Below are positions 32,767 to 64,000 of a DNA stretch of 64,000 nt, in pieces; the first letter of the stretch is position 1, and every line of letters starts with the position of its first letter. Origin of the DNA: Planctomycetota bacterium (GTDB lineage: Bacteria; Planctomycetota; UBA1135; UBA2386); NCBI GenBank assembly GCA_965228735.1, contig OZ245838.1, positions 6,560,001 to 6,624,000 of the forward strand, written 5' to 3'. Made by a program: the position numbers and the translations under genes. The notes beneath the pieces are model-generated. The model was not told where the DNA came from. It saw only the letters and a program-made list of their open reading frames with translations, and ran no database searches.

Positions 32767-34563
32767 CTACTTCTCGGACAGGCAGTAGAGGCTCTTGTGC
32801 CCGCGCAGGTAGATTGCGTCGCCGAGGATCACCGCGCTCGCGTCGAACGCGTCCGCCAGTTCGTTCGTCGCGACCTCTTCGAACGTGTGGCCGGCCTTGA
32901 AGACCTTGGTCTGGCCTTCGCGCGACGTGACGTAGACGTGGCCGTTGGCGCCGACGGGTGACGCGTAGACCGTGCGCAGGCCGCCGAGGCGCTGGCCTTC
33001 GTAGTGCACCTCGCCGGTCTTGGCGTCGACGCAGGTCAGCACCGCGTTGTTGACGCGCAGGAAGTAGATGTCGTCGCCGTAGAGCAGGGCCGACGGCACG
33101 TACGACGTCGCGCGCGTGTGCTGCCACAGCACGTGCTCCGAATCGGTGAGATCACCGCGCGCGCCCGGCAACGCGACGGCCTGTAACATCGCGCCGCGGA
33201 ACCCGCTCATGAGGAACGCAACGTCGTCGCGGATGATCGGCGTCGGGATGGTGTTCACCGTCATGCCACCGAGCTCCCAGATTACCTTGCCCGTCTGCAG
33301 GTCGTAGCCGCGCGAGGCGGTGGTCGCGTTGATGATGATCTGCGGCTTGCCATCGACCTTCGTGATGACCGGCGTGGACCAGCTCGTGACCTCGTCGCGG
33401 TCCTGCTTCCAGAGCTCCTTGCCCGTGCGCTTGTCGAGCGCCGCGATGAACGACTGCTTCTCGTGGTCCCAGTTGATCACGACGATATCACCCCAGATCG
33501 CGGGCGAACTGCCCTCGCCGAACTGGTTGCGCGTCCGCATGTAGCCGTAGTCCTTCGACCAGAGCACCTCGCCCTTCATGTCGAGACAGTGGATGCCGCG
33601 CGAGCCGAAGTGAGTGTAGATCCGTTCGCCGTCGGTGATGGGCGAACCCGAAGCCTGCGAACCCGTCGAGTGGCCGCGCTCGTGCGGTACGGTGCGCGCG
33701 ACGCTCGTGCTCCAGGCCGTCGAACCGTCCTTGCGATCGAGCGCCATGACGCGGAAGTCGAAGACCTTGGTCAGCGGCTCCGGGGGGCGGCGGCCGCGGC
33801 GACCGCCGCGGCCGCCGCGGCCCGCGCCGTCGCCGATCGGTTCGAGCTCGGGCGCCTCGCCGTCCTCGTCCGTCTCGATGGCCGTCGTGAGGATGATGTG
33901 ATCGCCCCAGACGATCGGCGTCGCGTGGCCGAGGCCCGGCACGTCGACCTTCCACCGCACGTTCTCGTTCTCGCTCCAGGTCAGCGGCGGCGTCGTGCCC
34001 GGGGCGGCGCCGGACCCCTCCGGGCCGCGCCAGAACGCCCAGTTCTTGCTGCCGCCCTGCTGCGTGGTGGCGGCCTGCGGCACCGGATCCTGCTGGGTCT
34101 CTGCGGCCTTCGCCGGCATGCGCTCGAGGTGGCCGAACATGTGACCGCCGTAGCTCTTGCCCGACCAGACGCCGGCGTAGCGGTCACCGTGGAAGACCAC
34201 GCGCGCGCTGTAGGTGCCGAGCATCGGGAAGCCGACGTCGGTGACCTGGATGGTCGGCGTGTCGCCGGCCCACAGCACGTTCGCGCCGACGGGTAGCGTC
34301 ACGTCCTTGCCGTCGTAGCGGATCGTCGCGTCGATCTTCCACTTCTCGTCGCGCAGCTTGGTCGCCTTCTCGATGAGATAGGTCTCGGGCCGCGGCGGCC
34401 CGTCGTTGCCGTCGACGGTGAACCGGCCGACCATCTTGCAGCGGGACATGCGCTTCGCGAACGCGGCCTCGCGCGCGGCCTGCTCGGCGTCGTCCGACTG
34501 GGCGGACAGGAGGGCGGGCGAGAGAGAGAACGCGACGAGCGAAGCGATGGCGTGATACTGCAT
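32767..34563 (-). CDS. Exported PQQ/BamB-like beta-propeller protein with extra N-terminal beta domain
   Basis: Signal peptide; WAFWRGP, ENVRWK, repeated SP / A.D..TG..W blades. Confidence 0.85.
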   Translation of the reverse strand: MQYHAIASLVAFSLSPALLSAQSDDAEQAAREAAFAKRMSRCKMVGRFTVDGNDGPPRPETYLIEKATKLRDEKWKIDATIRYDGKDVTLPVGANVLWAGDTPTIQVTDVGFPMLGTYSARVVFHGDRYAGVWSGKSYGGHMFGHLERMPAKAAETQQDPVPQAATTQQGGSKNWAFWRGPEGSGAAPGTTPPLTWSENENVRWKVDVPGLGHATPIVWGDHIILTTAIETDEDGEAPELEPIGDGAGRGGRGGRRGRRPPEPLTKVFDFRVMALDRKDGSTAWSTSVARTVPHERGHSTGSQASGSPITDGERIYTHFGSRGIHCLDMKGEVLWSKDYGYMRTRNQFGEGSSPAIWGDIVVINWDHEKQSFIAALDKRTGKELWKQDRDEVTSWSTPVITKVDGKPQIIINATTASRGYDLQTGKVIWELGGMTVNTIPTPIIRDDVAFLMSGFRGAMLQAVALPGARGDLTDSEHVLWQHTRATSYVPSALLYGDDIYFLRVNNAVLTCVDAKTGEVHYEGQRLGGLRTVYASPVGANGHVYVTSREGQTKVFKAGHTFEEVATNELADAFDASAVILGDAIYLRGHKSLYCLSEK

Positions 34564-34672
34564 GGCGAGATCGGCTCCTTGAGGCGATCCGGTGTACCCC
34601 TGGGGGGCGCCAGCGGAAGCGCCGCTGGCCGAGTCGGCAAGGGTTACTTACTTTCGACAGCTCGCGGCCCGT

Positions 34673-35947
34673 TCACCGCCAGGCGAACGCGGCGAGCCCC
34701 TGCAGGCCGCGCACGAAGACCTGATCGCCGTCGACCGCGAGATGGGCCCAGGTCTCCTCCTCCGCGACCTCCATCCGGCTCTCGATCTCGAGCTCCTCGG
34801 TGTTCGCGCGGATCATCAGCAGTTCGCCGGAATCGGTCAGCGCGAGCATGCGATCGCCCCGAGCGACGATCGACCAGTAGGTGTCCCCGAGCGGTTCGCT
34901 GATCCACGCGACCTCGCCGGCGGCGAGGTCGACGCAGCAGAAGCGCTTGCTGCGCAGATAGAGATACGCGTGGCCGTCGATCACGACCGGTGACGTCATG
35001 TTGCCCTGCGCGCGGTTCGTCCACGCCTGCTCGACCTGCATCGCCGGCGCGCCGTCGCCGCCCTCGGCGTTCTTGCTGACCGCGAAGTAGTGCGCGCGGC
35101 CGCCGTAGGCCGACGTGAACACGCCGTCGCCGAACGGCAGGGGCGTGAGGATGTTCATGCCGCGGAACGACTTGATGTCGACGCCCCAGAGCTCGTCACC
35201 TGTCTCGAGGTCGACGCCCGACAGTCGGGTTCGGCCCTGCACGATGATCTGCTCCTGACCGGCGATCGTCGCGATCACCGGCGAGCTGAACGCGCCCGCG
35301 TTCATCATGTTGTTGCCGTCGTCAGCGAGCCCGCGCCAGACCGACTCGCCGGTCGCGGCGTCGAGCTTGATCAGGCCGGCGGCGGTGTGCACGTAGACCG
35401 CGCCGTCGTGGACGAGGGGCGAACAGACGAAGCCGAACGGCTGCTTGGGCGTGCCGTAGCGACCCTTGAAGTCGACGCGCCAGTGTTCGTTGCCGGTCGG
35501 GGCATCGAGGCAGACGAGCACGTCGAGCATGCCGGCGACGTAGAGCCGATCGCCGTGGAGCGCCGGCGTCGCGCGGATCCACGAACCGTTGCGGGCCGCG
35601 AAGAACGGCACCTTCATCGCGCCCTCCCAGGTTGCCTCCCAGACCTTCTCCCCGGTCTTGCGATCGATGGCCCAGACGCACTCCTCGAACTGGTCGAGCG
35701 TCGCGGTCGTGTAGACCCGCTCGGCGTCGCACACGGGGCCCGAGTAGCTCTCGCCGAGCTCGACGTGCCACTGCCGTTGCAGGGTCTCCTTCGCCAACTG
35801 CTCGGGCCACTCGGCGCCGGCCGCTTGACCGTCGCGGGCCGGGCCGCGCCATTGGTTCCAGTGGTCGCCCTGGGCAGCAACGGCGGCGGTCAGAGCGAGG
35901 GCGAAGACGACGGCGGGGAGGACGAGGCGCGGGGTCGCGAGTGGCAT
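34673..35947 (-). CDS. Exported PQQ/BamB-like beta-propeller protein
   Basis: Signal peptide; WNQWRGP; IDRKTGEKVWE, LDAPTGNEHW, LDAATGESVW blades; start ATG 35947. Confidence 0.85.
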   Translation of the reverse strand: MPLATPRLVLPAVVFALALTAAVAAQGDHWNQWRGPARDGQAAGAEWPEQLAKETLQRQWHVELGESYSGPVCDAERVYTTATLDQFEECVWAIDRKTGEKVWEATWEGAMKVPFFAARNGSWIRATPALHGDRLYVAGMLDVLVCLDAPTGNEHWRVDFKGRYGTPKQPFGFVCSPLVHDGAVYVHTAAGLIKLDAATGESVWRGLADDGNNMMNAGAFSSPVIATIAGQEQIIVQGRTRLSGVDLETGDELWGVDIKSFRGMNILTPLPFGDGVFTSAYGGRAHYFAVSKNAEGGDGAPAMQVEQAWTNRAQGNMTSPVVIDGHAYLYLRSKRFCCVDLAAGEVAWISEPLGDTYWSIVARGDRMLALTDSGELLMIRANTEELEIESRMEVAEEETWAHLAVDGDQVFVRGLQGLAAFAWR

Positions 35948-36009: not shown

Positions 36010-39000
36010 CTATTCGGCGTGCAGGGCCCGGAGCAGCTGCCCCCGGGTCGCCAGGGCGCTCGCCAGGACGACCCAGAACGCGCCGCTGAGCGCGATCAGC
36101 GCCACGAAGCCGAGGAGCGGCCCGATGGCGACCGGGTCGGGCGACCGGACGACCGGGACGATCGCGAGGCCTGCCGCCACGAGCCCGGTGAGGAGGCCGA
36201 GGCCCAGCAGCAGCCCGTGTTCGCTCACGACGAGTCGGCGCACGTCCCGGCTCGAGAAGCCGACGGCCTGCAGGGTCGCGAGCTCGGCGCGGCGTTCGAG
36301 CGTGTTGCGGAGCACGACCACGCCGAGCCCGACCGTGCCGAGCAGCAGGCCGAGGCCGCCGAGCAGCTGGAAGATCGCGAGGTAGGTGTTCTGCACGGCC
36401 TGGAACGCGGCGAGCCGGTCGGCGGACTTCGTGAGCTCGAGTCCGAGGTCCGCCAGCGCGCGCGACAGCGACGTCGCGACCGCGTCCGCGCGTTGGGCAT
36501 CGGCGTCGACGAGGAACATGCGGAACCCCGTCGCCGACGGGAATCGTTCCCGCAGGTGCCGATCGGCGATGACGAGATTGCCCTGCAGGATCGAATCGCT
36601 CACCGTCGCGACGATGCGCACGTCGAACTCGTTCCCGGCCTCGTCCCGGTAGCGCAGCGCATCGCCGACGGCCTTGTGCAGGCTCCACGTCACGCTCGCG
36701 GCGTCGCCGATCGCCGGCACGACGTCGGGTCCGAGGTCCCGGTCGAGCAGTCGCCACGGGTTGTCGTCGCCCGCGTCACCCGTGACCGCGAACCGGAAGG
36801 CCTCGCGTTGCGCCAGCTGTTCCGGCTCGACGCCGACGAGCCGCGGGCTTTGCGGCGTGCTGAGGTTGAGGCAGCTGCCGTCGTCGCCGTCCTTGACGCG
36901 CAGCGGCACGATGCGTGCGCCCTGCAGATCGTCGTCGTCGAGCGCGTAGGCGTCGCGTCCGGCGGTGGTCGCGAGATCGCGCAGCACCGGCAGCGACGAG
37001 CGGCCGAACAGCGCGAACCCGCCCGTGCCCGACGCGCGCACGCTCGGATCGGTCGGCGGCTCGAGCCGGTTGCTCTGGACGGCGACGACGAGGAACGTGC
37101 CGCTCGCGAGCAGCGCGATCGTCGTGAGGCTCCGACCCGTGCGGCGCGAGCTGTTGCGCACGCCGAGCGCGGTGATCGTCGGCAGGCCCGCCGTGCGTTT
37201 CGCGGCGTGGCGCAGCAGCAGGTGGCGCGATGCGAAGATGCCGGCGATGAGCACGAGCGCACCCGCGCCGAAGAACGTGCCGGCGGTCGCGGCCGAGCTC
37301 GACCCTGCGGTCATCACGAGCGTGATCGCGCCGGCGAGTGCGATGACGGCGAGCCCGAGGCTCAGTCCACGCGGGCCCCGGGCACCGGGTCGTGCCGTGG
37401 GCGCCAGCGTACCGTCGCCCTGCAGCAGTTCGACGGCCGGCCGCCGGAACGCGCGGCGCAGCGTGAGCAGGATCGCGAGCAGCGCCGCGACGACCGCACC
37501 GATCGCGCCGCCCACGATCGAGCCCGGGACGAGGTGGGCCGTGAGCGTCGTCTGGCCGACCGCGTCCTGCCACAGCGACCCGAGGCCGGCGAGCACGGCG
37601 TGGGCGTAGCCGATGCCGAGCAGGGCGCCGAGCGTCGCGCCGACGCCCGCGAGCAGCAGTGCTTCGCGCACGAACAGGCCGCGCACCCTGCCCTCCGTGA
37701 AGCCGACCCCGAGCAGCAGGCCGACTTCGCGCCGGCGCTGTTCGACCCCGAACACGAACAGCAGCGCCGTGAGCATGAGCCCGGCGATGACGAGGAAGAA
37801 GCTCAGTCCGAGGAAGAGGCCGCCGAAGTCGGTCGCCGGCGAGCCTGCGGCGAGTGCCGGGCCGCGCAGGTCGCGGAAGAACAGCCCGAGTGCTTCGGGA
37901 TCGAGCTGCTGCGCGAGCTCGGTGCGCACGCGCGCGGCGGCCGGCGCGCTGAGCCGGATCGCCGTGAGGTTGCCGAACCGGTTGCCGAAGAGCCGCTGCC
38001 CGGCGGCGAGCCCGAGGAACGCCTTGGGCGTGCCGCGGTGTTCTTCCCAGTAGGCCTGGTCCTCGCCATCGAGCCGGTCGAGTTCGACCGGGATGCCCGG
38101 CTCCCAATCGCCGCAGCTGCGCGCTTCGGCGAGGCCCGGGAACGCCGGCATCAGAGCCGGGTCGAGCGCGGCATTCGCGAGCTCGACGATCGCGCTGACG
38201 CGCATCGTGTGGGTGCGTTCGTCGAGCTGCAGCTGCTCGTCCATGACGTAGTAGCTCAGCACGAGCTCGGCGCCGGGCTCGGCGCCGATGTCCTTGGCGA
38301 GCCAGTCGTGGATCACCAGCTCGTCGCCCTCCGGCGCGAGACTCGCGGTCGCGGCGAGCGGCGCTGCGGGAGCGGTCGCCGGGTCGAGCGGCCCGAGTGC
38401 GGTCACCGTCGAGTACGGCGTCACGCGTTCGCCGGCCGCGATCGAGTTCACGAAGTAGGTGAGGATCGCCAGGCCGTCGGGCGCGATGGCGCGAACGGTG
38501 TCGCCGATCGCGGGATCGAGGAAGACGCGGCCGCTCGTCAGCGCGTGGATCTCGGGGTTCGTCGCGCTGCCGTCGAGGTCGGCCGGGATCGGGCCGAGCT
38601 CGAGCTCCGCGTCCGCGAGGGTCCAGTGGGTGCGCAACGCCCGGTCCGCGGCCGCAGGCGTCGCATCGATCGCGAGCAGGTTGGCGCGGTCCTCGAGTTC
38701 GAGCTCGGCGTTGAGCCACGCCCGGTCGAGGAACACGTTGAACGGCGGCACCTGGCTCGCCCGCAGACCGAAGCGGCCGAACTCGTCGTCCTGCAGCACG
38801 CGGTCGACGGTGACGCGCAGCGCGAACGCGACGTCGTCGACGGTCGCCATCGTGGCCTCGCGCGGCATGAGGCTCGGACGCTCGACGCGCACGACGAACT
38901 CGTCGCCGGCGTCGATCTGCAGCTGGCGCGCGAGTCGCACGTTCACGAACGCGCGGCCAGGTGGGATCGCGGTGACCGCCGATGCCCGGGCTGGCGCCAT

Positions 39001-39375
39001 CGCGAAGAAGCGTGTGTCCACGCCGTAGACGTCGACGAGACCGGTGCGCAGTTCGGTCGGCCCCTGTTCGTTGCCCTTGCGGCGGCTGGTGGCCACGCCC
39101 GGCAGCTGCACGATCGGCGCGCACGTGCTGCCCTCGATCGCGGCTGCGATCCGATCCGCGAGCGCGACCGTGACGAACCGGTCGCCCGCGGTCAACGCCG
39201 CGTCGAACCCGCCGATCCGTTGCAGTGCCTGCTCGCGCAGGCTGAGCCGTACGGAGTCGCCGACGGTGAGCGCGCCGACGAGCACGGTCGCGGCACACAG
39301 CACGCCGAGGACGACCCCGACTTGGGTGCGCCAGTAGTGCCGCAGGCTGGCCTTCGTCAGGCGCCAGGCATTCAT
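36010..39375 (-). CDS. ABC transporter permease, duplicated MacB/FtsX-like
   Basis: N-terminal TM, two large periplasmic domains; EQRRREVGLLLGVGF and ERRAELATLQAVGF FtsX signatures. Confidence 0.9.
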   Translation of the reverse strand: MNAWRLTKASLRHYWRTQVGVVLGVLCAATVLVGALTVGDSVRLSLREQALQRIGGFDAALTAGDRFVTVALADRIAAAIEGSTCAPIVQLPGVATSRRKGNEQGPTELRTGLVDVYGVDTRFFAMAPARASAVTAIPPGRAFVNVRLARQLQIDAGDEFVVRVERPSLMPREATMATVDDVAFALRVTVDRVLQDDEFGRFGLRASQVPPFNVFLDRAWLNAELELEDRANLLAIDATPAAADRALRTHWTLADAELELGPIPADLDGSATNPEIHALTSGRVFLDPAIGDTVRAIAPDGLAILTYFVNSIAAGERVTPYSTVTALGPLDPATAPAAPLAATASLAPEGDELVIHDWLAKDIGAEPGAELVLSYYVMDEQLQLDERTHTMRVSAIVELANAALDPALMPAFPGLAEARSCGDWEPGIPVELDRLDGEDQAYWEEHRGTPKAFLGLAAGQRLFGNRFGNLTAIRLSAPAAARVRTELAQQLDPEALGLFFRDLRGPALAAGSPATDFGGLFLGLSFFLVIAGLMLTALLFVFGVEQRRREVGLLLGVGFTEGRVRGLFVREALLLAGVGATLGALLGIGYAHAVLAGLGSLWQDAVGQTTLTAHLVPGSIVGGAIGAVVAALLAILLTLRRAFRRPAVELLQGDGTLAPTARPGARGPRGLSLGLAVIALAGAITLVMTAGSSSAATAGTFFGAGALVLIAGIFASRHLLLRHAAKRTAGLPTITALGVRNSSRRTGRSLTTIALLASGTFLVVAVQSNRLEPPTDPSVRASGTGGFALFGRSSLPVLRDLATTAGRDAYALDDDDLQGARIVPLRVKDGDDGSCLNLSTPQSPRLVGVEPEQLAQREAFRFAVTGDAGDDNPWRLLDRDLGPDVVPAIGDAASVTWSLHKAVGDALRYRDEAGNEFDVRIVATVSDSILQGNLVIADRHLRERFPSATGFRMFLVDADAQRADAVATSLSRALADLGLELTKSADRLAAFQAVQNTYLAIFQLLGGLGLLLGTVGLGVVVLRNTLERRAELATLQAVGFSSRDVRRLVVSEHGLLLGLGLLTGLVAAGLAIVPVVRSPDPVAIGPLLGFVALIALSGAFWVVLASALATRGQLLRALHAE

Positions 39376-40082
39376 CGCGGTTGGCCCGCGGGTGCTGCGG
39401 CCCCGGCGAGGACGCCGTCACGCAGTTCGATCGCGCGACTCATCCGGTCGGCGAGGCGGCGCGAGTGGGTGACGACGAAGAGCGCCACGTCGTGTTCGCT
39501 GTTGAGCTCGACGAGTAGCTCGCCGAGTCGGTCGGCGCCGCGCTCGTCGAGCGACCCCGTCGGTTCGTCCGCGAGCAGCAGGCGCGGCCGGTTGACGAGC
39601 GCGCGCACGACGGCGACGCGTTGGCGTTCGCCGCCCGAGAGCTCGGCCGGGCGGTGATCGAGTCGGTCGCCGAGTCCGACGTCGTTCAGCAGCGCCCGGG
39701 CGCGGTCGGGCGCGGCCTTGCGTACCGCGGTATCGGACAGCGCGAGCGTCGGCACGAGCACGTTCTCGAGCGCCGTGCACTGCGGCAGGAGGTGGTGCGA
39801 TTGGAACACGAAGCCGATCTCCCGGCTGCGCAGCGCGGCGAGTTCCTTCGCCGACAGTTCGCCGAGATCGCGGCCGTCGAACCGCACCGTGCCGGTGCTC
39901 GGCGGCAGCAGCCCGCCGATGAGGTTGAGCAGCGTGCTCTTGCCGCAGCCGGACGGCCCGAGCACGGCCACCGACTCGCGCGCCGCGATCGTGAGGTCGA
40001 CCCCGCGCAGCACCTCGGTCGTGGGGCCGAACGTCCGCGTCGCGCGCTCGACCTCGACGAGTGGCCGGTCGGCGGTCGTCAT
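39372..40082 (-). CDS. ABC ATP-binding protein, LolD/MacB type
   Basis: GPSGCGKST, IGFVFQ, LSGGERQRVAV, LLADEPTGSLD, VTH. Confidence 0.95.
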   Translation of the reverse strand: MTTADRPLVEVERATRTFGPTTEVLRGVDLTIAARESVAVLGPSGCGKSTLLNLIGGLLPPSTGTVRFDGRDLGELSAKELAALRSREIGFVFQSHHLLPQCTALENVLVPTLALSDTAVRKAAPDRARALLNDVGLGDRLDHRPAELSGGERQRVAVVRALVNRPRLLLADEPTGSLDERGADRLGELLVELNSEHDVALFVVTHSRRLADRMSRAIELRDGVLAGAAAPAGQPR

Positions 40083-40612
40083 TTGGGCGCCTGTTGCGAC
40101 GGGGCCTGTTGCGATGGGGGCGTGCCGGGTTTCGCGCCGGCCGGTGCCGGCTTGTAGAGCGTCACGAGCAGGCCGCCGGTCGCGGCGAGTGCGATGCCGA
40201 GCAGGAACCGCCAGTCGAGACTCCCGAAGCCGCCCGTCGGCGGGTGGACGGCGATCGCGACGAACGCGTTCACCATCGGCGCACCCGCGAAGATGATGGA
40301 CATCACCGCGGCGGGGTGACCCTTCGCCCCGAACGCGAGCAGCACGCCGAACGCGCCGATCGCGCCCATGATGCCCGCGACGAGCGACCAGGTGACGGCC
40401 TTGGGCGGCATCGACCAGGACGCGCCGGCGAACCACAGCATCGCGGCCGGGGCGAGCACGGCGATGAGGAAGTAGGCGATGCCGACCCAGAAGAACGCCT
40501 TGTAGCGCCCGTTCTGCGGGTCGCCCATGGCGACCTGGCCGGTGTGCAGGAGCACGCCGTAGAGCCCCCAGCTGACGACGGTGAGGAGGGCGAAGAGGAT
40601 CCAGGTCTGCAT
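40079..40612 (-). CDS. Small multi-pass membrane protein (DMT/EamA-like)
   Basis: About five hydrophobic helices, FALLTVVSWGLYG N-terminus; overlaps the ABC ATPase start. Confidence 0.7.
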   Translation of the reverse strand: MQTWILFALLTVVSWGLYGVLLHTGQVAMGDPQNGRYKAFFWVGIAYFLIAVLAPAAMLWFAGASWSMPPKAVTWSLVAGIMGAIGAFGVLLAFGAKGHPAAVMSIIFAGAPMVNAFVAIAVHPPTGGFGSLDWRFLLGIALAATGGLLVTLYKPAPAGAKPGTPPSQQAPSQQAPK

Positions 40613-46636: not shown

Positions 46637-47673
46637 TAGACCCCCTCGACGATCTTCTCCTTCTCCGCCTCGAACGGCCGCACCTCGCCGACGCCGTCCC
46701 ACGCGTACTGCTCGCACGGCTTGCGGCGAAGCGCCTCGTCGCGCTCGAGGAAGCGCGGCATGAAGAACTCCTTCGTCAGCGTCGTGAGCTCGACGCGGCC
46801 CCAGTCGTCGTAGTCGACGACGTTCTCCGTCTGCTCGGGGTCGACGACGCGCAGCACGGCGCGCGGCTGCGGCGCGTAGTAGGTGATCGAGTAGCCGTCC
46901 GCTGCGAAGTCGGGCTTGTGGGCCGCGAGGCCCATGAGCGTGTTGCCGTAGGTCGGGACGAACTCGACCTCGCCCTCGAGGACCTCCTCGCAGATGAACC
47001 GCGTGTTCTGCGGCGTCATCGTCGTGCCGCCGCAGAAGACGCCCTTGATGCCGGCCTCGGGGATCGACGTGCGTTCGCCGAGCTCCTCGAGGAGCTTGGG
47101 CGTCGTGAACAGCGCGGCCACGTCGCGGTGCTGGATGATCGACATCGCCTGGTCGACGACGTGCGCCATGTAGGCCTTGGCCTGGTCGAACTCCTTGTTC
47201 CTGATCAGCTTCTTCACCCAGCGCGGGTCGAGGTCGACGAAGTAGCACGATGAGCCGCGGAAGTTGGCGAGGTGCTCGATCGCGAGCCGGAGGCGCCGCG
47301 GTCCCGTCGGGCCGACCATGAGCCACGCGCCGCCCGGCGGAAACGCCGCGTCGCTCAGCGTCGCGGAGAACTGCTCGTAGTCCGTCTTGTAGTCCTCCCA
47401 GTTGATGCGCTGCTTCGGCATCCCGGTCGTGCCGCCGGTCTCGAACACGGTGAACGGCCGGCCCTCGTACGCCTTCGGGATGAAGCGGGCGTGCGGCTCG
47501 GTGCGCAGCAGCTCGCCGTCGAAGTGGGGGAAGCGCGTGACGTCGGCGAAGCCCGTCACCTCCTCGGCCGGGTTCCAGCCACTGGCCTTGGCCCAGTCGA
47601 GCCAGTGCGGCGTGCCGGTCTCGGGCGAGAAGTGCCAGCGCACGATCTCGCAGAAGTGTTGGTCGAGGTTCAT
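46633..47673 (-). CDS. EhpF-like compact adenylate-forming enzyme (PaaK/LuxE-related)
   Basis: RWHFS.ETG.P.WL, ETGGTTGMPK P-loop, PTGP, DLDPRWVK, GGT, YG.T, PR..ERD, C-terminal EGVY resemble Pantoea EhpF as I recall it. Confidence 0.82.
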   Translation of the reverse strand: MNLDQHFCEIVRWHFSPETGTPHWLDWAKASGWNPAEEVTGFADVTRFPHFDGELLRTEPHARFIPKAYEGRPFTVFETGGTTGMPKQRINWEDYKTDYEQFSATLSDAAFPPGGAWLMVGPTGPRRLRLAIEHLANFRGSSCYFVDLDPRWVKKLIRNKEFDQAKAYMAHVVDQAMSIIQHRDVAALFTTPKLLEELGERTSIPEAGIKGVFCGGTTMTPQNTRFICEEVLEGEVEFVPTYGNTLMGLAAHKPDFAADGYSITYYAPQPRAVLRVVDPEQTENVVDYDDWGRVELTTLTKEFFMPRFLERDEALRRKPCEQYAWDGVGEVRPFEAEKEKIVEGVY

Positions 47674-56315: not shown

Positions 56316-57580
56316 CTGCGTTCACCTTGGGGCCGGCCGAGCGCCAGCAGTTCGGTCTCGGTGCGAATGTAGAGGCGGTCGTGCGCGATCGCAGGCGTCG
56401 CGCAGGTGGGGCTGCCGAGGTCGAGCTCGCCGAGCGGCGTGTGCTCGTCGCCGGTCGCCGAGAACGTGCGCAGCGTGCCGGCGCGGTCGCAGACGAAGAT
56501 CGTCTCGCCGTTGGTCACGGGCGAGCTGAAGTAGCGCGCGTCGGTGCGTTCGCGCCACAGCTCGTCGCCGGTGTCGGCCTGCAGACACACGGCGTAGCCG
56601 CTGTCCGAGAACCAGAAGTAGCGCTGGCCGATCGCGATCGCCGCCGGCACGTAGGGCAGGCCGCGGCGCGGGCGATACGCGATCGCGGGCTCGGTCGCGC
56701 CCGCCTTGCCGAGGTCGAACACGGCGCACTCCTTGCCGGCGTTGCCCGCACCCGTGTTGACGAACAGGCGGTTGCCGCAGCGGGTCGGCGTCGCGATGAA
56801 CCGGTACTTGAAGCCCGGGTCGGCCTGCCAGCGCAGTTCGCCGGTCGCGGGTTCGATCGCCGTGAGCCCGTGCGCCGAGCTGGCCACGAGCAGGAACGGA
56901 TCGCCCGTCTCCGGTTCGAACAGCAGCGGCGGCGAATACTGCGCCCAGCGCGCGTTCGCCTCGCGATCGATCCGCCAGACCGGTTCGCCCGTCTTGCGAT
57001 CGAGCGCCGTGAGGAAGCTGTCGGGGCCCTGGTTCTCGTTCGCGATGATGACGAGATCGCCGCACAGCACGGGCGCCATCGCGCTGCCGTGGTTGCTCTT
57101 GAACGTGCCGAGCACGTGGCGCCACGCCTGCTTGCCGTCGTGATCGAACGCAGCCGCGACCAGGTCGGCGCCGTCGGTCCACAGCCCGTAGACCGCGTCG
57201 GCGTCGCAACACATCGTCGCGCTCGCGAAGTTGTTGAGCTTGTGCTGGTCGTGGGCCTCGAACTCGCGGCCCGCCGTCCAGAGTTCGTTGCCGGAGTCGG
57301 CGTCGAAGCACACGACGGCTCGGGTCGAGCCGACGATCCGGGTCAGGAACACGCGCTTGCCCCAGAGAACGGGCGAGCTGTGGCCGACGCCGCGGAGTTC
57401 GGCGCGCCAGCGGATGTGTTCGGGCGTCAGGTCGCCGGGCAGGTCGAGCTGGCCGTGACCCTGGCCGCCCGGCCCGCGGAAGCGCGGCCACTCCTGCGCG
57501 GTCGCGCGTCCCGAGACGGCCGCCGCGAAGACCGCGGTCGACGCCGCGAGCAGAACTCCGAGAACGCGGTCTCGCATCAT
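56312..57580 (-). CDS. Exported PQQ/BamB-like beta-propeller protein
   Basis: Signal peptide, QEWPRFRGP, GHSSPVLWG, ALDRKTGEPVW; ATGA overlap. Confidence 0.85.
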   Translation of the reverse strand: MMRDRVLGVLLAASTAVFAAAVSGRATAQEWPRFRGPGGQGHGQLDLPGDLTPEHIRWRAELRGVGHSSPVLWGKRVFLTRIVGSTRAVVCFDADSGNELWTAGREFEAHDQHKLNNFASATMCCDADAVYGLWTDGADLVAAAFDHDGKQAWRHVLGTFKSNHGSAMAPVLCGDLVIIANENQGPDSFLTALDRKTGEPVWRIDREANARWAQYSPPLLFEPETGDPFLLVASSAHGLTAIEPATGELRWQADPGFKYRFIATPTRCGNRLFVNTGAGNAGKECAVFDLGKAGATEPAIAYRPRRGLPYVPAAIAIGQRYFWFSDSGYAVCLQADTGDELWRERTDARYFSSPVTNGETIFVCDRAGTLRTFSATGDEHTPLGELDLGSPTCATPAIAHDRLYIRTETELLALGRPQGERR

Positions 57581-59031
57581 TTCGCCCCGAGCTTGTAGAG
57601 GTGTTCGTCGGTGCGCAGCCAGATGCTGCCGTCGACGAGCGCCGGCGTCGCGAAGCACGTCTCGCCGAAGTCGGCCTCGTGCAGCACCTCGAGCGTGCCG
57701 GCGCGCAGCACCGTGAGGATGCCGGCCTCGCTCAACAGGTAGACCTTGCCGTCGCCCGCGACCGGCGCGGTGAAGTAGGCATCGCCCGCGTGCCCGACCC
57801 GTTCCTTCCCCTGCAGTTCACCGCTCTCGGCATCGAGCGCGGTCACGAGGCCGCCCTGGTCGGCGGCGAGGTAGTAGGTGCCGCCAGTGACGAGGGGCGA
57901 CGGCAGCTGCGGGATGGAGCGGTAGTACTGCCACAGCACGTTCTCGTCGGTCATGTCGCCCTCGCCGCCGACCTTGACGGCGATCGCGCAGTTGACCGCG
58001 GCGAGCGACAGTCGCAGGAGGTGCCACTCGCGCGCGTCGAGCACCTTGTCACGGTTGCTGTCGACGAAGCCGGCGTAGCCGCGCGCCCGCCGGTCCGTGA
58101 GCTCGGCGGCGTCGATCTTGCCGTTGTCGTTGCTGTCGAACTGTTCGAGCGCCGCCTCGAACTCGGGCAGGTCGAGCTGCCGGCCCTTGTTGTTGATCGG
58201 GCTCGCGAAACCGTGGATCCAGAGCGTGTCGTCGAGCAGCACGGGCACCGACTTCATCTCGCCCGCGAGGCCGCGGATCCACCACACGCGCTTGCCGGTC
58301 TGCACGTCGTAGGCGTCGAGCAGGAACGAGCCCGCGAGGATGAACTGCTTGGCCCCGCCGTCCGGCTGCCACAGGACCGGCGTGCAGTGGCCGCTCACGG
58401 CGTCGGGTCGCGCGGTCTTCCAGAGCACCTTGCCGCTGTGCTTGTGGATGCCGAGCACGTAGCTGTCGACGCCGTCGTCGCACGGCACGATCGCGACGTC
58501 GTCGATCAGGATCGGCGACGCGCCCATGCCGTACGCGTTGTGGAACGGGCCGAGCGGCAATCGCCAGCGTTCGTTGCCGTCGTGGTCGTAGGCGAGCGCG
58601 CCGAACTCGTCGAAGAACACCACGACGGTGTCCGCGTCGACCGCCGCTGATGCCGCGGCTGGACCGTTCTTGCCGTGAAACTTCGTCTCGCGTTCCCGCG
58701 GTGCCTCCTGCTGCCACACGGTTTCGCCGGTCGCCCGATCGACCGCGATCGTCCAGAGCTTGCCGTCTTCGAACGCCGTGAGGAACAACCGCGTCGGACT
58801 GAACGTCGGTGAGCTGTGACCCGGCGGGAATGCGCGCTTCCAGATCACGTTCCGTTCCGGCCCGACCTCGGCCGGATACGTGCCGCCAGTGGCGAGCCCG
58901 GTGCCGTTCGGGCCGCGGAACATGTTCCATGGCGAGGTGCCGTCTTGAGCGGCACCGTCCTGGGCGCCGAGCGTGGCGAGCATCAGCAGGGCGGTGATCG
59001 GCGGCAGGGCGCGGCGCGCGAGCGAGATCAT
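57577..59031 (-). CDS. Exported PQQ/BamB-like beta-propeller with inserted EF-hand pair
   Basis: WNMFRGP; loops DSNDNGKIDAAE and DSNRDKVLDARE. Confidence 0.85.
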   Translation of the reverse strand: MISLARRALPPITALLMLATLGAQDGAAQDGTSPWNMFRGPNGTGLATGGTYPAEVGPERNVIWKRAFPPGHSSPTFSPTRLFLTAFEDGKLWTIAVDRATGETVWQQEAPRERETKFHGKNGPAAASAAVDADTVVVFFDEFGALAYDHDGNERWRLPLGPFHNAYGMGASPILIDDVAIVPCDDGVDSYVLGIHKHSGKVLWKTARPDAVSGHCTPVLWQPDGGAKQFILAGSFLLDAYDVQTGKRVWWIRGLAGEMKSVPVLLDDTLWIHGFASPINNKGRQLDLPEFEAALEQFDSNDNGKIDAAELTDRRARGYAGFVDSNRDKVLDAREWHLLRLSLAAVNCAIAVKVGGEGDMTDENVLWQYYRSIPQLPSPLVTGGTYYLAADQGGLVTALDAESGELQGKERVGHAGDAYFTAPVAGDGKVYLLSEAGILTVLRAGTLEVLHEADFGETCFATPALVDGSIWLRTDEHLYKLGAK

Positions 59032-59115: not shown

Positions 59116-59547
59116 TTACGACAGGCGCTCGGCGGGCACGGCCTCGATCGCCGCGTCGATCGCGGGCGGCATCGCCACGGCGCGCAGCGTGCCGTCCGCG
59201 GTCTTCTCGATGCACACCGCCGTGATCGTGCCGCGCGCGACCTCTTCGCCGGCCAGCAGGAACCGCGTTTCGTAGACGATCGCCTTGCTGCGCTTCTCGC
59301 GCACCAGCAGGTGCAGTTCGACCTCGTCCTCGTAGCGCAGGGGCCGCTTGTAGTCGCACGTGGCGTTGCGACGGGCCCAGCCGAACGCCGCGGTCCGAAC
59401 GTCGCCGTGCACCGAGTAGCCGAGCGAGCGGAAGAACGCGTGCTCCGCCTCTTCCATGTACCGGAAGTAGTTGGAGAAGTGCAGGATCCCGGCCATGTCG
59501 GTCTCGGCGAACGTCACCGACCGTCGCATTCGGAACTCACTCGCCAT
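59116..59547 (-). CDS. Acyl-CoA thioesterase (4HBT/YbgC hotdog fold)
   Basis: FAETDMAGILHFSNYFRYMEEA, YKRPLRYED. Confidence 0.9.
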   Translation of the reverse strand: MASEFRMRRSVTFAETDMAGILHFSNYFRYMEEAEHAFFRSLGYSVHGDVRTAAFGWARRNATCDYKRPLRYEDEVELHLLVREKRSKAIVYETRFLLAGEEVARGTITAVCIEKTADGTLRAVAMPPAIDAAIEAVPAERLS

Positions 59548-59553: not shown

Positions 59554-60864
59554 TCACGCGTAGCGCACGGCGCGGTGTTCGGCCGGAAAGAACTCGTGCA
59601 GCAGCCGGTCGATCTCGAGCATCGCCGCGCGCCGCACGGTGATCGCATCGCCGCTCACCTCGAAGTGGCCATCAGTGACGTGCTTGTCGAGCGCCCTGCC
59701 GAACCGCTGCGTGACCTCGACGCCGAACTTGCTGCGGAAGTAGCCCGCGTCGACCTGGCCGAGCTTGAGCTGCAGGATGAACTCGCGGATCAGCCGCTGG
59801 TCGTCGTCGAGCGGCAGCGCGCGATGGATCGGCAGCTCGCCGGCCTCGACGCGCTCGACGTAGGGCAGGAAGTCGTGCTCGTTCTGGAAGTGGATGCCGC
59901 CGACGTGCGAGAACGACGCGACGCCGAGCCCGAGCAGGTCGGCGCCGTGCCACAGGCCGTCGCGGTAGAGGAACTGCGCGTCGCCGCGCTTGGCCGTGTA
60001 GGCGCTGCCGATCGTGTAGCCATCGGCCTCGAGCGCGCGGAACGCCTCGTCGACCCAGCGCCGCTTGGTCGCCCAGTCGGCGACGGGGGCCACCTCCTCG
60101 CCGCTGTCCTTCATCCGGCGCGCGACCGTCGTGTTGAACGGGATCTCCATCTGGTAGATCGTCACGCTGTCGGGCTGCAGCTCGATCGTGCGTTCGATGC
60201 AACGTTGCCAGTTGTCGTCCGTCTCGCCGATCATGCCGGCGATCAGGTCGATGTTGATCTGCGGGAAGCCGACGTCGCGCGCGGTTCCGTAGGCCTTGTC
60301 GATCTCCTTGGCGCGGTGCGCGCGGTTGTTGCGTTCGAGGATCTCCGGATCGAAGTTCTCGACGCCGAGCGACAGCCGCGTGATGCCGAGGTCCTTCAGC
60401 GCCTTGATCTTCTTCTCCTGCAGCGTGCCCGGCTCGCACTCGAACGTGATCTCGCGCGCGGCGTCCCACGGCAGGTGCTCCTGGATGCCGGCGAACAGCT
60501 CGGTGAGCTGATCGACCGACAGATAGCTCGGCGTGCCGCCGCCGAAGTAGACGAAGTCGATCGGGCGCCCGGCGACCGCGGCCTGCTGCGCGTAGGACTT
60601 CGCCTCCTGCACGACCGCGCTCGTGTAGCGCCGGACCTCGTCGCTGTTCTTGTCCGTGTAGACCCGGAAGTAGCAGAAGTCGCAGCGCTTCCGGCAGAAC
60701 GGGATGTGGACGTAGAGCCCGAACGGGGTGCCCGGATCCGGCGGCTCGGCGAAGCGCGCGCGAGCAGCGGTGGCGTGCTCGGGCCGCCACACCGAGAACG
60801 GCGGATAGTTCGCGACGAAGTAATTCCCCGTCGTCGTGCTGTTGGCTTCGGAGTCGGAGGCCAT
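59554..60864 (-). CDS. HemN-like radical SAM enzyme
   Basis: LYVHIPFCRKRCDFCYF (CX3CX2C), YFGGGTPS, RLSLGV, NIDLIAG, LGLG..SFS. Confidence 0.92.
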   Translation of the reverse strand: MASDSEANSTTTGNYFVANYPPFSVWRPEHATAARARFAEPPDPGTPFGLYVHIPFCRKRCDFCYFRVYTDKNSDEVRRYTSAVVQEAKSYAQQAAVAGRPIDFVYFGGGTPSYLSVDQLTELFAGIQEHLPWDAAREITFECEPGTLQEKKIKALKDLGITRLSLGVENFDPEILERNNRAHRAKEIDKAYGTARDVGFPQINIDLIAGMIGETDDNWQRCIERTIELQPDSVTIYQMEIPFNTTVARRMKDSGEEVAPVADWATKRRWVDEAFRALEADGYTIGSAYTAKRGDAQFLYRDGLWHGADLLGLGVASFSHVGGIHFQNEHDFLPYVERVEAGELPIHRALPLDDDQRLIREFILQLKLGQVDAGYFRSKFGVEVTQRFGRALDKHVTDGHFEVSGDAITVRRAAMLEIDRLLHEFFPAEHRAVRYA

Positions 60865-60996: not shown

Positions 60997-61893
60997 CTAT
61001 CGCGGCACGCCGAACGGCAGCGCATCGAGCGCCGAACCGGGCAATCGGTGGATCGTGTACGCGAGCCCGGGCCGCACCTGGGTCGCCGTCGAGATCGGGA
61101 TGCCGAGGAAGCGGGTCGTCGTCGTGCTGCCGACCTCGGTCGGGACGTAGCCGCGGAAGACGCCGATGACCTCGAGGCGTTCGGTCTTCGCGTTCCAGAG
61201 CATCGCGGGGCCGCCGGACATGCCGCCGAGCTCGAAGTGGCCGCCCGCGGCGAACCAGTGGCGGGCGCCCGGGTCGGTGTCGCGGATCGTGGCCGGGATC
61301 GACGGTGCCCGCGCGGTGTGGTCGACGCGTTGGTCTTCGAAGAACCCGGCCGCGTAGCCGACGAGGAGGACTTCGTTGCCGACCTCGGGCCGCCAGTTCG
61401 CGGCGCGCGCCGGGGCGTGGATGGGGGCGATCGCCGTCCAGCGCGGCGCTGCCGCGCGCAGGATCACCCAGTCGCCGTGCGGGGTCTCGGGGTCGCCGGA
61501 TGCGACGACCGTGACCGCGACCTCCTCGCCGGCAACTCGCAGCGGGACCGTCTGCTCGACGTCGGTCGGCGTCGTGCGCGTCATGTGGGCCGCGGTGAGC
61601 AGGTGATCCGGCGCGATGATCGTCGCCGTGCCCTGGGTTCGCGCCCGCAGGTTGACGATCGCGACGACGGGCGCGAGATCGGTGTCATTCACGTGCTCCG
61701 GCGTCCGGTCGGCGAACCGGGTCGCGAGCGGCGGATACGCGCCCGCCGCGCTGCCGGGGCCGGTCGCACACGCCGTTGGCAGCGTCAGGGCCATGGCAAC
61801 GGCCAGGGCGGCGGCCAGGGCAGGGGTCAGAGCAGGGGTCAGAGCGACGGCTACGGAACCGGACCGACCAGCGCGACGGACGAACGGGAACAT
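60997..61893 (-). CDS. Trypsin-like serine protease, probable lipoprotein (start uncertain)
   Basis: LLTAAH, GDWVIL, GGMSGGP triad motifs; hydrophobic leader ending LPTAC. Confidence 0.75.
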   Translation of the reverse strand: MFPFVRRAGRSGSVAVALTPALTPALAAALAVAMALTLPTACATGPGSAAGAYPPLATRFADRTPEHVNDTDLAPVVAIVNLRARTQGTATIIAPDHLLTAAHMTRTTPTDVEQTVPLRVAGEEVAVTVVASGDPETPHGDWVILRAAAPRWTAIAPIHAPARAANWRPEVGNEVLLVGYAAGFFEDQRVDHTARAPSIPATIRDTDPGARHWFAAGGHFELGGMSGGPAMLWNAKTERLEVIGVFRGYVPTEVGSTTTTRFLGIPISTATQVRPGLAYTIHRLPGSALDALPFGVPR

Positions 61894-61957
61894 CGGGGTG
61901 GTGTCAGATTCTCGTCTCTGAGTTTGGTCTCGCGCGATCATGTACCATCATGCCGCG

Positions 61958-63193
61958 ATGAGCGCGCCCGGTGAGGAGCCAGATTTCGATGTCGTCGTGA
62001 TCGGCGGCGGGCCCGCGGGTGCCGCCGCCGCCGCACTCGTCGCCGCGCAAGGGCACAAGACCGCGCTGTTCGAACGCCAGTCGTTCCCGCGCTTCCACGT
62101 CGGCGAATCGCTCGTGCCGGCCGTGAACCAGACGCTCGATCGACTCGGCCTCCGGGGTCGGATGGACGAACTCGGCTTCGTGCAGAAGCATGGCGTGCAG
62201 TTCTACACGCCGAACGGGCCGAGCCGACCGTTCTACTTCAGCGAGGTCGACGATCCGGCGCTGCACAACACGTGGCAGGTCCACCGCAGCAAGTTCGACG
62301 CGATGCTGCTCGAGCACGCGCAGAACCGCGGCGTGCACGTCGAGACCGACACCCCGGTCGTGCATGCGCTGCGCGACGGGCCCGCTGTGACCGGCGTTCG
62401 CGTGCGGCATCTCGACGAGAGCGAGCAGAACGTGCGCGCTCGCATCGTGCTCGATGCGTCGGGGCAGAAGGGCATCGTCGCGTCCGACCTGACGCAGCAT
62501 CAGGGCGTGCCGGGGCTCGAGAACACGGCCGTCTACGCCCACTACCGCGACGTGCCGCTCGATCCGGGCAAGGACGCCGGGTCGACGCTGATCTATCGCC
62601 TCGACGCGCGATCGTGGATCTGGTTCATCCCGCTCGAAGGCGTCGTGAGCATCGGCCTCGTGACGTCGGCGCGCGAGATCCTGCGCTTCGGCCAGGACCG
62701 CAACGCGATCCTCGACACCGCGATCGCGCAGTCGGAGCACCTGAGCGAACGGCTGCAGTCCGCCACGCGCGCCGGTGAGGTCCGGGTTGCGCGCGACTTC
62801 AGCTACCGCGCCCAGCGCGACGGGGGGCCGGGTTGGGCCCTCGTCGGCGACGCGCTCGGCTTCATCGATCCGGTCTATTCGACCGGGCTGCTGCTCGCGA
62901 TGAAGGCGGCGGAGACCGCCGCGCTCGAAGTGACGTGTCGGCTCGCGAGCGACGCCGCGCACCCGGACATGCAGGGCTTCTCGGCGCCGTGGCAGCAGTC
63001 GTTCGACCGCTTCCTGCCGCTGGTCCGCGCGTTCTACACGGAGGACTTCCGCTTCGGCGAGGTCAGCAAGGAGCCCGCGCACCGCAAGGGCCTCGTCGAT
63101 CTGCTCACCGGGCTGACGGACACGCAGGAGGCCATCGACGTCACCGAATTGATACGCCGGCTGCTCGGTGACGAGGTGACGGCGGACTCGTAG
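61958..63193 (+). CDS. FAD-dependent halogenase-like oxidoreductase
   Basis: GGGPAG, FPRFHVGESL, GFVQKHG, WIWFIP (WxWxIP), LVGDALGFIDPVYSTG. Confidence 0.85.
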   Translation: MSAPGEEPDFDVVVIGGGPAGAAAAALVAAQGHKTALFERQSFPRFHVGESLVPAVNQTLDRLGLRGRMDELGFVQKHGVQFYTPNGPSRPFYFSEVDDPALHNTWQVHRSKFDAMLLEHAQNRGVHVETDTPVVHALRDGPAVTGVRVRHLDESEQNVRARIVLDASGQKGIVASDLTQHQGVPGLENTAVYAHYRDVPLDPGKDAGSTLIYRLDARSWIWFIPLEGVVSIGLVTSAREILRFGQDRNAILDTAIAQSEHLSERLQSATRAGEVRVARDFSYRAQRDGGPGWALVGDALGFIDPVYSTGLLLAMKAAETAALEVTCRLASDAAHPDMQGFSAPWQQSFDRFLPLVRAFYTEDFRFGEVSKEPAHRKGLVDLLTGLTDTQEAIDVTELIRRLLGDEVTADS

Positions 63194-63223
63194 AGTGTGG
63201 TCTCCCCTTCCCGGAGACCAACG

Positions 63224-64000
63224 TTGCGCCATCCCACGTCGACTCTCGTTCGTTCGTTCGCTTTCCTGACGCTGATCGGCAGCGTTGTTGCCGGCCTCCT
63301 GCCCGCGCAGGATTGGCCGCATTGGCGCGGTCCCGAGTACGACGGTTCGACGACCGTGACCGGACTGCCCACGACGTTCTCCAGGACCGAGAACGTGAAG
63401 TGGCAGACGGCGATGCCCGGCCCGGGTGCGAGCACGCCGATCGTCGTCGGCGATCGCATCTACCTCACGTCGGTCGACAGCGAGCGCGAGCGGCTCGTCG
63501 CCATGTGCCTCGATCGCAAGAGCGGCGAGGTCGTCTGGCAGCACGATGCGGGCAGCGGCTACAAGGAGCGCGAGGGCGCCACGCGAATCGCTCGCGGCAG
63601 CCGCACGCGGGCGACGTTCGCGTGCCCGTCGGCCGTGACCGACGGCGAGCACGTCGTGTTCTTCTTCGGCAACGGCGATCTCGTCGCCTACCACTGTCAG
63701 GGCGAGAACGACGGCGCCGAGGCCTGGCGCCGCAACGTGCAGGCGGACTACGGCAACTTCGCGTTCAACTGGACGTTTTCCGCGAGCCCGACGTACCACG
63801 ATGGCCTCGTCTATCTGCCCGTTCTGCAGCGCGACGAGCCGATCCAGCGGCGGCGCCGCGGGGGGCGCGGTCGGCGCGGGCCGCAGGACGGGGGCGCGGA
63901 CGGCGAGCAGCCGGCGGAGGCGAAGCCGCCGGCGATCGACTCGTTCCTGCTCGCGATGGACCCAGCGACCGGCAAGACGGTGTTCAAGCACGTGCGGCCG
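63224..64000 (+). CDS. Exported PQQ/BamB-like beta-propeller, 3'-truncated by window edge (absent from ORF track)
   Basis: GGAGA RBS then TTG; manual translation MRHPTSTLVRSFAFLTLIGSVVAGLLPAQDWPHWRGP...ENVKWQTAMPGPGASTPIVVGDRIYL; open to window end. Confidence 0.85.
   Translation, partial: MRHPTSTLVRSFAFLTLIGSVVAGLLPAQDWPHWRGPEYDGSTTVTGLPTTFSRTENVKWQTAMPGPGASTPIVVGDRIYLTSVDSERERLVAMCLDRKSGEVVWQHDAGSGYKEREGATRIARGSRTRATFACPSAVTDGEHVVFFFGNGDLVAYHCQGENDGAEAWRRNVQADYGNFAFNWTFSASPTYHDGLVYLPVLQRDEPIQRRRRGGRGRRGPQDGGADGEQPAEAKPPAIDSFLLAMDPATGKTVFKHVRP

Follow-up and report, generated by a model that had tools for sequence, protein, structure and literature searches.

A conserved planctomycete gene cluster tied to an orphan family of exported propellers

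In grixazone biosynthesis GriC/GriD adenylate and reduce 3-amino-4-hydroxybenzoate (PMC10179220), and EhpF-O convert phenazine dicarboxylate (PMC3175449), as stated in the available parts of these sources. Here we describe a gene cluster in a 64,000-nucleotide stretch of a Planctomycetota bacterium genome (assembly GCA_965228735.1, contig OZ245838.1, positions 6,560,001 to 6,624,000; hereafter the window), in which a full-length EhpF match is followed, much as described for EhpF/EhpG (D-alanylgriseoluteic acid) and GriC/GriD, by a gene for an aldehyde dehydrogenase (ALDH)-fold protein without the general-base glutamate. Unlike those pairs, of which EhpG and GriC/GriD are compared here by description, this one was found without phenazine genes and is tied to a predicted importer and exporter, an iron-containing alcohol dehydrogenase (Fe-ADH) and exported propellers. 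The cluster very probably represents a real, conserved and so far undescribed system that is linked to the orphan propellers, and it is likely a service operon of exported eight-bladed propellers that joins a core for maturing or loading them to an aerobic module that feeds them reductant.

The nos cluster offers a parallel, as the available part of its description names a propeller client (NosZ), an ATP-binding cassette (ABC) maturation machine (NosDFY) and a clade-specific electron supply (NosR or NosGH), one of them NapGH-like (PMC13685413). In contrast, the planctomycete cluster has many eight-bladed PQQ_2-type clients, a MacB-type ABC system, a family 4 glycosyltransferase (GT4) and no copper chaperone that we could see, and one of its modules would perform small-molecule chemistry. 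No match to NosZ, NosDFY, NosL or NosR/NosGH was obtained in the cluster with Pfam/NCBIfam, which speaks against a nos-type maturation system, and the likeness is best taken as an analogy rather than whole-system homology. The Stn family is bifurcating and, in the available part of its source, has the same domain set as a redox module of related genomes that we call module C (PMC10482914). Like Stn and NapGH/NosGH/MauMN, module C has NuoE/F-like and 2Fe-2S/GltD-like subunits and a twin-arginine ferredoxin with a Fer4_5 protein; unlike Stn, its GltD-like subunit is about 520 aa long versus 1172 aa for StnC, the loci read contain no nap, nos or mau enzyme, and bifurcation in module C is putative.

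The propellers share the eight-bladed, tryptophan-docking fold of pyrroloquinoline quinone (PQQ) quinoprotein dehydrogenases, BamB, tetrathionate hydrolase and acido-empty-quinoprotein group A, but those in the window are at most 19% identical to solved structures and score far under the NCBIfam cut-offs. These scores excluded assignment as PQQ-dependent dehydrogenases (at most 83 bits versus the TIGR03075 cut-off of 480, and at most 31 versus 833 for TIGR03074), as BamB (TIGR03300, 33-140 bits versus 285) or as acido-empty-quinoprotein group A (TIGR04528, at most 61 bits versus 650); pqqC turned up neither in this genome nor in any of five genomes, in a search for which no positive control rang. 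For a planctomycete, the baaA-baaB locus has been proposed to make 3,5-dibromo-p-anisic acid, BaaB being about 44% similar to Bmp5, and in the available part of that report a chorismate-lyase-like gene adjoins a flavin halogenase (bioRxiv 10.1101/723874), an arrangement shared by many relatives of our cluster. Compared by description, the halogenase here is instead of the Trp_halogenase/CmlS type, and the same part of the report mentions no reductase, GT4, ABC system or propeller for baaAB; identity with baaAB was rejected, as searches of this genome did not recover the lyase-like gene. An uncharacterised "SHC-like" (squalene-hopene-cyclase-like) clade is placed by the available parts of two sources in the PVC (Planctomycetes-Verrucomicrobia-Chlamydiae) and FCB (Fibrobacteres-Chlorobi-Bacteroidetes) groups, Spirochaetota and Acidobacteriota (PMC12324236, PMC7306690), and a squalene-hopene-cyclase-fold gene that adjoins a DUF116-polyprenyl synthase in module B of our relatives is a candidate member of it. 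Each part of the cluster belongs to a known fold, and the system as a whole is new to the literature searched: we found no paper describing it in a search that left subscription journals and bioRxiv supplements outside its coverage, nor does any characterised pathway match it.

Gene order and co-inheritance with the propellers

Gene calling with a codon model over the whole genome, and Pfam/NCBIfam scans of 25 proteins, delimited a run of 20 minus-strand genes (32767-60864, 28,098 bp) in which neighbouring genes share 4 or 8 bases at nine of 19 junctions and nine genes encode PQQ_2 propellers, with a halogenase-like gene and a tenth propeller on the divergent side. The preliminary description, made from the window's letters alone, had reported this overlapping co-oriented run with nine propellers and the divergent pair, and all of the genes it named are present: a radical S-adenosylmethionine (SAM) enzyme, a thioesterase (TE), a sodium:solute symporter (SSS), an EhpF-like protein, a reductase, an Fe-ADH, a GT4, a drug/metabolite transporter (DMT)-like protein and an ABC system. 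It had overlooked a DUF3311 gene, a peptidyl-prolyl isomerase (PPIase) domain on the propeller P3 and a trypsin-like gene. We refer to GT4, the ABC permease and ATPase and P3 as the core, and to the remaining enzymes and transporters as module A. Across families, and with local shuffles, the order P5-P4-DUF3311-SSS-EhpF-ALDH-FeADH-P3-rSAM-Halo-GT4-TE-DMT-ABC (rSAM, radical SAM; Halo, halogenase) recurs in many of 28 related loci. The grouping is thus above chance, and in these loci the enzymes are syntenic with the propellers P3, P4 and P5. Family f7 is an exception, its copies of the genes being dispersed. Among named records the nearest relatives belong to Planctomycetota, and the Atlas clusters of P4 and the DMT protein are commonest in Verrucomicrobiota or Planctomycetota.

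Relatives also carry additional genes, namely a PaaK-like ligase (8 loci), a chorismate-lyase-like protein (6), a divergent MarR (5) and a TonB receptor (4). The chorismate-lyase-like profile matches 2nwi (E 5e-4) and rings in all five other module A genomes examined, while searches of this genome and of genomes G157, G074, G053 and G182 did not recover the gene. A PaaK-like gene of this genome (G000:5463303-5464655, 37-39% identical to the cluster type) sits in another neighbourhood and was not counted as a member. A TonB-dependent receptor lies 13 kb beyond the window end (G000:6637533-6639773) and is 61% identical to the cluster-adjoining one in G157, with a Flp/Tad-like pilus block between it and P10.

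To relate the cluster to the propeller family, 301 genomes of the phylum were surveyed, of which 99 were propeller-positive (E 1e-30) and 202 propeller-negative; six candidates were scored per genome, a maximum that most positives reach, and the profile includes P5. An EhpF-like match was present in 79 of the 301, close (E <1e-100) in 57 and distant (E >1e-60) in 22. The link between enzymes and propellers claimed in the preliminary description holds: all 57 genomes with a close match are propeller- and GT4-positive, making up 57 of the 99 propeller-positive genomes, and none of the 202 propeller-negative genomes has one. A GT4 orthologue was found in 88 genomes, comprising 87 of the 99 propeller-positive and one of the 202 propeller-negative, the exception being the weakest match, and among 191 near-complete genomes propellers occur in 64 and GT4 in 62. 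Families that are split give equal tallies for propellers and GT4 (f1 1/4, f2 1/7, f5 2/3, f14 2/5, f15 7/15, f25 1/6). EhpF-like proteins of a distant clade (28-37% identity) were seen in about 20 genomes, most of them propeller-negative, for example in family f35, and a scan of the genome collection with the EhpF-like protein alone returned seven loci.

A panel of 80 genomes was then compared gene by gene, comprising 24 of the 56 other EhpF-positive genomes, all 42 that are propeller-positive and EhpF-negative, and 14 of the 202 negatives; each search scored 5-21 candidates in a genome, and many genomes are incomplete. In this order of groups, radical SAM and DMT were each found in 24/24, 0/42 and 0/14 genomes and SSS in 20/24, 0/42 and 0/14, so tracking module A, while the core extends beyond it, with GT4 in 24/24, 30/42 and 0/14 and the ABC permease in 22/24, 33/42 and 0/14. 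Relatives of P4 were found in 24/24, 9/42 and 0/14. A control prolyl oligopeptidase from the window (18/24, 5/42 and 10/14) does not track the propellers. These BamB/PQQ-like orphan propellers thus occur in roughly one in three of the genomes surveyed (99/301), this genome having at least 23 of them. They are inherited almost exactly in step with a single-copy GT4 and a single ABC permease, which opens the whole family to a single-knockout test.

Core, propellers and accessory modules

The GT4 has a predicted GT-B fold (predicted local distance difference test, pLDDT, 93.5), with GlgM, MshA and BshA as best matches at 17-23% identity, and carries the EX7E motif; at the start of its helix 1 lies a CxxC motif, C15 being present in 72 and C18 in 71 of 72 aligned rows. 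The ABC system belongs to the FtsX-domain class, having FtsX permease domains and a LolD/MacB-like ATPase that reaches 244 bits against a LolD equivalog cut-off of 308 and is also DevA-like in a family scan. Its permease has about ten predicted transmembrane segments and two periplasmic domains, with Cys421 in 19 of 23 aligned sequences, and Cys515 of P3 is invariant (30/30). Together, the conserved cysteines of GT4, P3 and the permease hint at thiol or metal chemistry. When P3 was modelled in complex with the permease's first periplasmic domain, the score was 0.46 versus 0.02 for the best control, the runs sharing at least 47% of contacts and the partner pLDDT being at least 90. In the calibration of this score (18/157 solved) both passing mismatches scored at most 0.60, and such a pass is wrong more often than right unless the pairing is likely beforehand; the model weakly supports P3 as a candidate periplasmic partner of the ABC system. 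Apart from this genome, just two close relatives (G157 and locus L071) showed the PPIase fusion on P3, P3 elsewhere being a single domain of 370-450 aa.

All ten propellers have signal-peptide-like N-terminal stretches as judged by eye, and their mutual identity of 21-34% rules out recent tandem duplication. The genome as a whole yields 28 propeller-profile matches at E 1e-5 and 23 at E 1e-25, so that more than half of its propellers are encoded outside the cluster. Across relatives the fixed members are limited to P3, P4 and P5, the other seven (P1, P2 and P6-P10) being variable, and in the loci read P4 nearly always adjoins P5. P4 is predicted to fold as an eight-bladed propeller (pLDDT 92.1) whose best structural matches are BamB chains, with solved relatives at 19% identity or less, and many polar residues in the loops of both P4 and P5 are conserved. 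An alignment of 125 propellers shows shared structural tryptophan and glycine residues and, more weakly, Arg9 (88%) and Ser338 (81%), the best polar positions, and Arg391. The family keeps an N-terminal W-x-x-x-RG strap and matches quinoprotein dehydrogenases in profile and fold searches.

Within module A, the 346-aa EhpF-like protein has EhpF (3hgu/3l2k) as its sole PDB family match (E 5.7e-44, residues 9-346), and its gene is single-copy and 52-82% conserved across many families. The gene for the ALDH-fold protein overlaps it by 4 bases and encodes a protein in which Cys290 is kept and the general-base glutamate is replaced by His254; an ALDH fold with the cysteine and without this glutamate is the pattern of acyl reductases. 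By these features the pair is predicted to be a two-protein carboxylate reductase of the EhpF/GriC type. A LuxCDE fatty-acid reductase was excluded, none of the 25 proteins matching LuxE, LuxC, LuxD or LuxAB (Pfam, E 1e-3). phzA/B were not seen in the window, nor was PF03284 found in any of five genomes, in a search whose positive control did not ring. The radical SAM protein falls below the curated cut-offs for HemN (196/325 bits), HemW (174/205) and HutW (179/400), and a separate paralogue in the genome is 26% identical to it. SSS/DUF3311 pairs are carboxylate importers; here the SSF domain and the DUF3311 partner are both over cut-off, and the MctP model scores 76 bits against a cut-off of 625. 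The DMT-like protein has no Pfam match and has DMT/EamA neighbours.

GxGxxG, a catalytic lysine and WxWxIP are the motifs of flavin-dependent halogenases. The halogenase-like protein (PF04820, 104 bits) has GxGxxG, Lys83 and WxWxIP, conserved in 90% or more of an alignment of 16 sequences, which marks it as a putative two-component flavin-dependent halogenase. It scores 185 bits with the CmlS model, 138 with QhpG and 105 with LodB, the QhpG/LodB-type models staying below cut-off. The corresponding gene of most relatives is part of the operon itself, where it follows the radical SAM gene; in a tree of 18 rows the window protein shares a long branch with those of G157 and G074, and its placement among the operon copies is unsettled.

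Among 18 GT4 loci of EhpF-negative genomes, GT4 mostly stands in a P3-GT4-ATPase-permease block, accompanied by module C: a twin-arginine ferredoxin in 12 loci, a Fer4_5 membrane protein in 11, an NHL propeller in 9, NuoE/F-like and 2Fe-2S/GltD-like subunits in 6 each, and two membrane-anchored propellers. Module C thus holds redox proteins and propellers only, and no biosynthetic enzyme was seen in it. Both copies read of its NHL propeller contain a vicinal cysteine pair (L079:6942-7973 and L084:15932-16999). Its NapH-like marker was found in 1/24 EhpF-positive, 37/42 module A-free and 0/14 negative genomes of the panel, and no NapG/NapH-like match was found in this genome. Together, modules A and C cover 61 of the 66 propeller-positive genomes tested; the other five have 1-5 propeller matches each, and four of them are also without GT4. 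In the best 80 of 554 metagenome GT4 loci, many of them short, the neighbour was module A in 35, module C in 6, both in none and neither in 39. Heme-copper oxidase was found in all five A-type and one of five C-type genomes examined, and UbiC-like and halogenase orthologues were not found in any of the five C-type genomes.

A further module B, read in loci L118-L137 and L081, comprises GcvH-like and CobW-like proteins, a cysteine desulfurase, a small cysteine protein, a ferredoxin, a radical SAM protein, the DUF116-polyprenyl synthase, a prenyltransferase toroid and the SHC-fold cyclase, and it may make a sulfur-containing or cyclic terpenoid. Its marker was found in 19/24, 32/42 and 0/14 genomes, hence in 51 of 66 propeller-positive genomes overall, with five of the 24 EhpF-positive genomes in this panel differing from those of the other panels. 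The module interleaves with module A or with the core in a number of genomes, in G228, G190 and G182 with A, and is optional in both A and C backgrounds; it was not found in this genome.

What the cluster may do

We tentatively propose, as a possible account of the gene content, that module A is an ATP-driven shuttle in which an aromatic acid and its alcohol export reductant to the propeller system. The SSS/DUF3311 pair would import an aromatic carboxylate, which the EhpF-like enzyme would adenylate. The glutamate-less ALDH-fold protein would then use NAD(P)H to form the aldehyde, in the manner reported for GriC/GriD, and Fe-ADH would yield the alcohol. The DMT protein would export this neutral reduced form, and in the periplasm P4/P5 would re-oxidise it to the acid for re-import, passing low-potential electrons to the propeller system. 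The halogenase, radical SAM enzyme and thioesterase, with the chorismate-lyase-like and PaaK-like proteins in relatives, would build a private, probably halogenated carrier of the 4-hydroxybenzoate type, and this genome, being without the lyase, would import the carrier precursor. In the core, GT4 would glycosylate a lipid or cofactor and the MacB-type ABC system would pass the product via P3 to the client propellers; this molecule is the least constrained part of the proposal.

Related, mostly oxidase-lacking genomes appear to use the iron-sulfur wire of module C for the same job. Module C consists, apart from its propellers, of redox proteins; if A and C are alternatives, that job would be the movement of electrons across the inner membrane. 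The potential of an acid/aldehyde couple is strongly negative, similar to that of bifurcation-reduced ferredoxin, and both modules would therefore deliver strong reductant outward. The fullest form of this proposal, which we consider rather unlikely to hold in every part, is that in aerobic Planctomycetota, and by Atlas taxa also in Verrucomicrobiota, a halogenated aromatic acid/alcohol electron shuttle replaces an oxygen-sensitive bifurcating iron-sulfur wire and powers a new class of periplasmic propeller enzymes with an ABC-loaded glycosylated cofactor, with the SHC-like cyclase clade as an optional tailoring module. The system would link several orphans, namely the propellers, an EhpF/EhpG-like pair outside antibiotic clusters, a reductase-less NapGH-like module and, probably, the SHC-like clade, and the shuttle, if true, would be a way to export strong reductant across the inner membrane of which we found no description.

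Several observations speak against this shuttle. The surveyed genomes are kin and hence not independent, few candidates (5-21) were scored in each, and the mutual exclusion of A and C could merely follow oxygen lifestyle, G228 moreover carrying both. P4 relatives occur in nine of the 42 module A-free genomes, SSS was not found in four of the 24 A-type genomes, and no invariant polar residue was found across the 125 propellers, which is not expected of one shared cofactor site. In A-type loci GT4 often stands directly between halogenase, lyase-like, thioesterase or ALDH genes, an arrangement that suits a linear pathway.

A linear biosynthesis, in which a hydroxybenzoate is halogenated, reduced and, optionally, prenylated and cyclised by module B before GT4 glycosylates it and the ABC system exports it as a propeller cofactor or ligand, anaerobes reaching an equivalent via module C, is a conceivable but doubtful alternative. 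It draws on the frequent flanking of GT4 by UbiC-like, thioesterase, halogenase or ALDH genes, on the order PPS-UbiC-GT4-TE seen twice, on the interleaving of modules A and B in three genomes and on the restriction of the module B marker to propeller-positive genomes (51/66 versus 0/14). It has to contend with a core that 30-33 of 42 genomes carry in the absence of module A, and 8 in the absence of both A and the module B marker, with a module C devoid of biosynthetic enzymes, with UbiC-like and halogenase orthologues not found in five of five C-type genomes, and with a separate importer and exporter that track module A and that it leaves unexplained. As G284 and G206 have the core and module C with neither EhpF nor DUF116, the acceptor of GT4 need not be the module A alcohol. 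The preliminary description had proposed a route of import, activation, reduction, glycosylation and export; enzymes, transporters and propellers do form one conserved system, and the linear path from acid to glycoside is weakened because the core also occurs without module A.

The BamB chains among the structural matches of P4, the P3-PPIase fusion, the LolD/DevA-like ATPase and the absence of family-wide catalytic residues would suit an envelope-biogenesis role, in which GT4 and the ABC system make and move a glycolipid anchoring or organising non-catalytic BamB-like propellers and modules A and C only set the redox state. We judge this improbable, as BamB scores are all far under cut-off, many polar loop residues of P4 and P5 are conserved, and the near-constant presence of one of two redox modules would go unexplained. 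Electrons might instead run inward, the propellers being substrate dehydrogenases and A and C draining their electrons or taking up and catabolising their products: the W-x-x-x-RG strap and the quinoprotein dehydrogenase matches agree with this, and NapGH/NosGH-type modules are reversible wires in principle. Since an adenylating enzyme with a glutamate-less ALDH fold is described as reductive (GriC/GriD), and an SSS/DUF3311 carboxylate importer fits acid entering and the reduced form leaving, we consider this direction quite improbable. That the flavoprotein is a QhpG/LodB-type maturase which, with the radical SAM enzyme, builds a quinone from residues of P4/P5 finds some footing in its QhpG and LodB matches, but the higher CmlS score, the kept halogenase motifs, the linkage to chorismate-lyase-like, PaaK-like and 4HBT genes, and the cytoplasmic nature of the enzymes and their absence from C-type genomes make a protein-derived cofactor very improbable. 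A chance neighbourhood of unrelated operons, to which the variable position of seven of ten propellers and the scattered genes of family f7 might point, is hardly credible, as scattered genes still co-occur genome-wide and the control gene does not.

Gene list and neighbouring features

The genes of the cluster are listed in Table 1. The trypsin-like gene, which separates the radical SAM gene from that of the halogenase, has no counterpart in related loci, is probably outside the system and may be a recent insertion. A scan for promoters and terminators stayed at chance level.

Table 1. Genes of the cluster and its divergent side, in window positions.
Feature	Positions	Strand
P1, exported eight-bladed PQQ_2-type propeller with additional N-terminal domain, variable member	32767-34563	-
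P2, exported propeller, variable member	34673-35947	-
Core: MacB/LolE-type ABC permease, 1121 aa, two FtsX domains	36010-39375	-
Core: LolD-like ABC ATPase	39372-40082	-
Module A: half-size DMT/EamA-like membrane protein, candidate exporter	40079-40612	-
Core: GT4 (GT-B fold), EX7E motif, N-terminal CxxC	40654-41958	-
Core: P3, ACSF4-type propeller fused to PPIase domain	41962-44043	-
Module A: Fe-ADH	44040-45197	-
Module A: ALDH-fold acyl reductase, EhpG/GriD-like by context	45206-46636	-
Module A: EhpF-like adenylating enzyme	46633-47673	-
Module A: SSS, candidate carboxylate importer	47836-49377	-
Module A: DUF3311 small membrane partner of SSS	49374-49658	-
P4, exported propeller, strongly conserved, polar loops conserved	49655-51220	-
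P5, conserved exported propeller with additional C-terminal domains	51213-53504	-
P6, exported propeller, variable member	53645-54928	-
P7, exported propeller, variable member	54960-56315	-
P8, exported propeller, variable member	56312-57580	-
P9, exported propeller, variable member	57577-59031	-
Module A: 4HBT-type hotdog thioesterase; true ATG at 59547	59116-59547	-
Module A: HemN-like radical SAM enzyme, CxxxCxxC	59554-60864	-
Trypsin-like protein	60997-61794	-
Module A: flavin-dependent halogenase-like protein	61940-63193	+
P10, exported propeller; runs 675 bases beyond the window end, to the equivalent of 64675	63224-64000	+

Elsewhere in the window, the S10 ribosomal protein operon is without rplC (L3) between rpsJ and rplD (1565-2535), and an L3 gene lies at a distant site, G000:692600-693355. 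Two tRNA genes and a small signal recognition particle RNA (28134-28220 on the plus strand, 30642-30739 and 30771-30858 on the minus strand) flank peptidase and dnaX genes. The genome also carries an aryl-polyene/flexirubin-like cluster (G000:3988452-4004276) with acyl carrier protein and ketosynthase-like genes and two halogenase-like flavoproteins.

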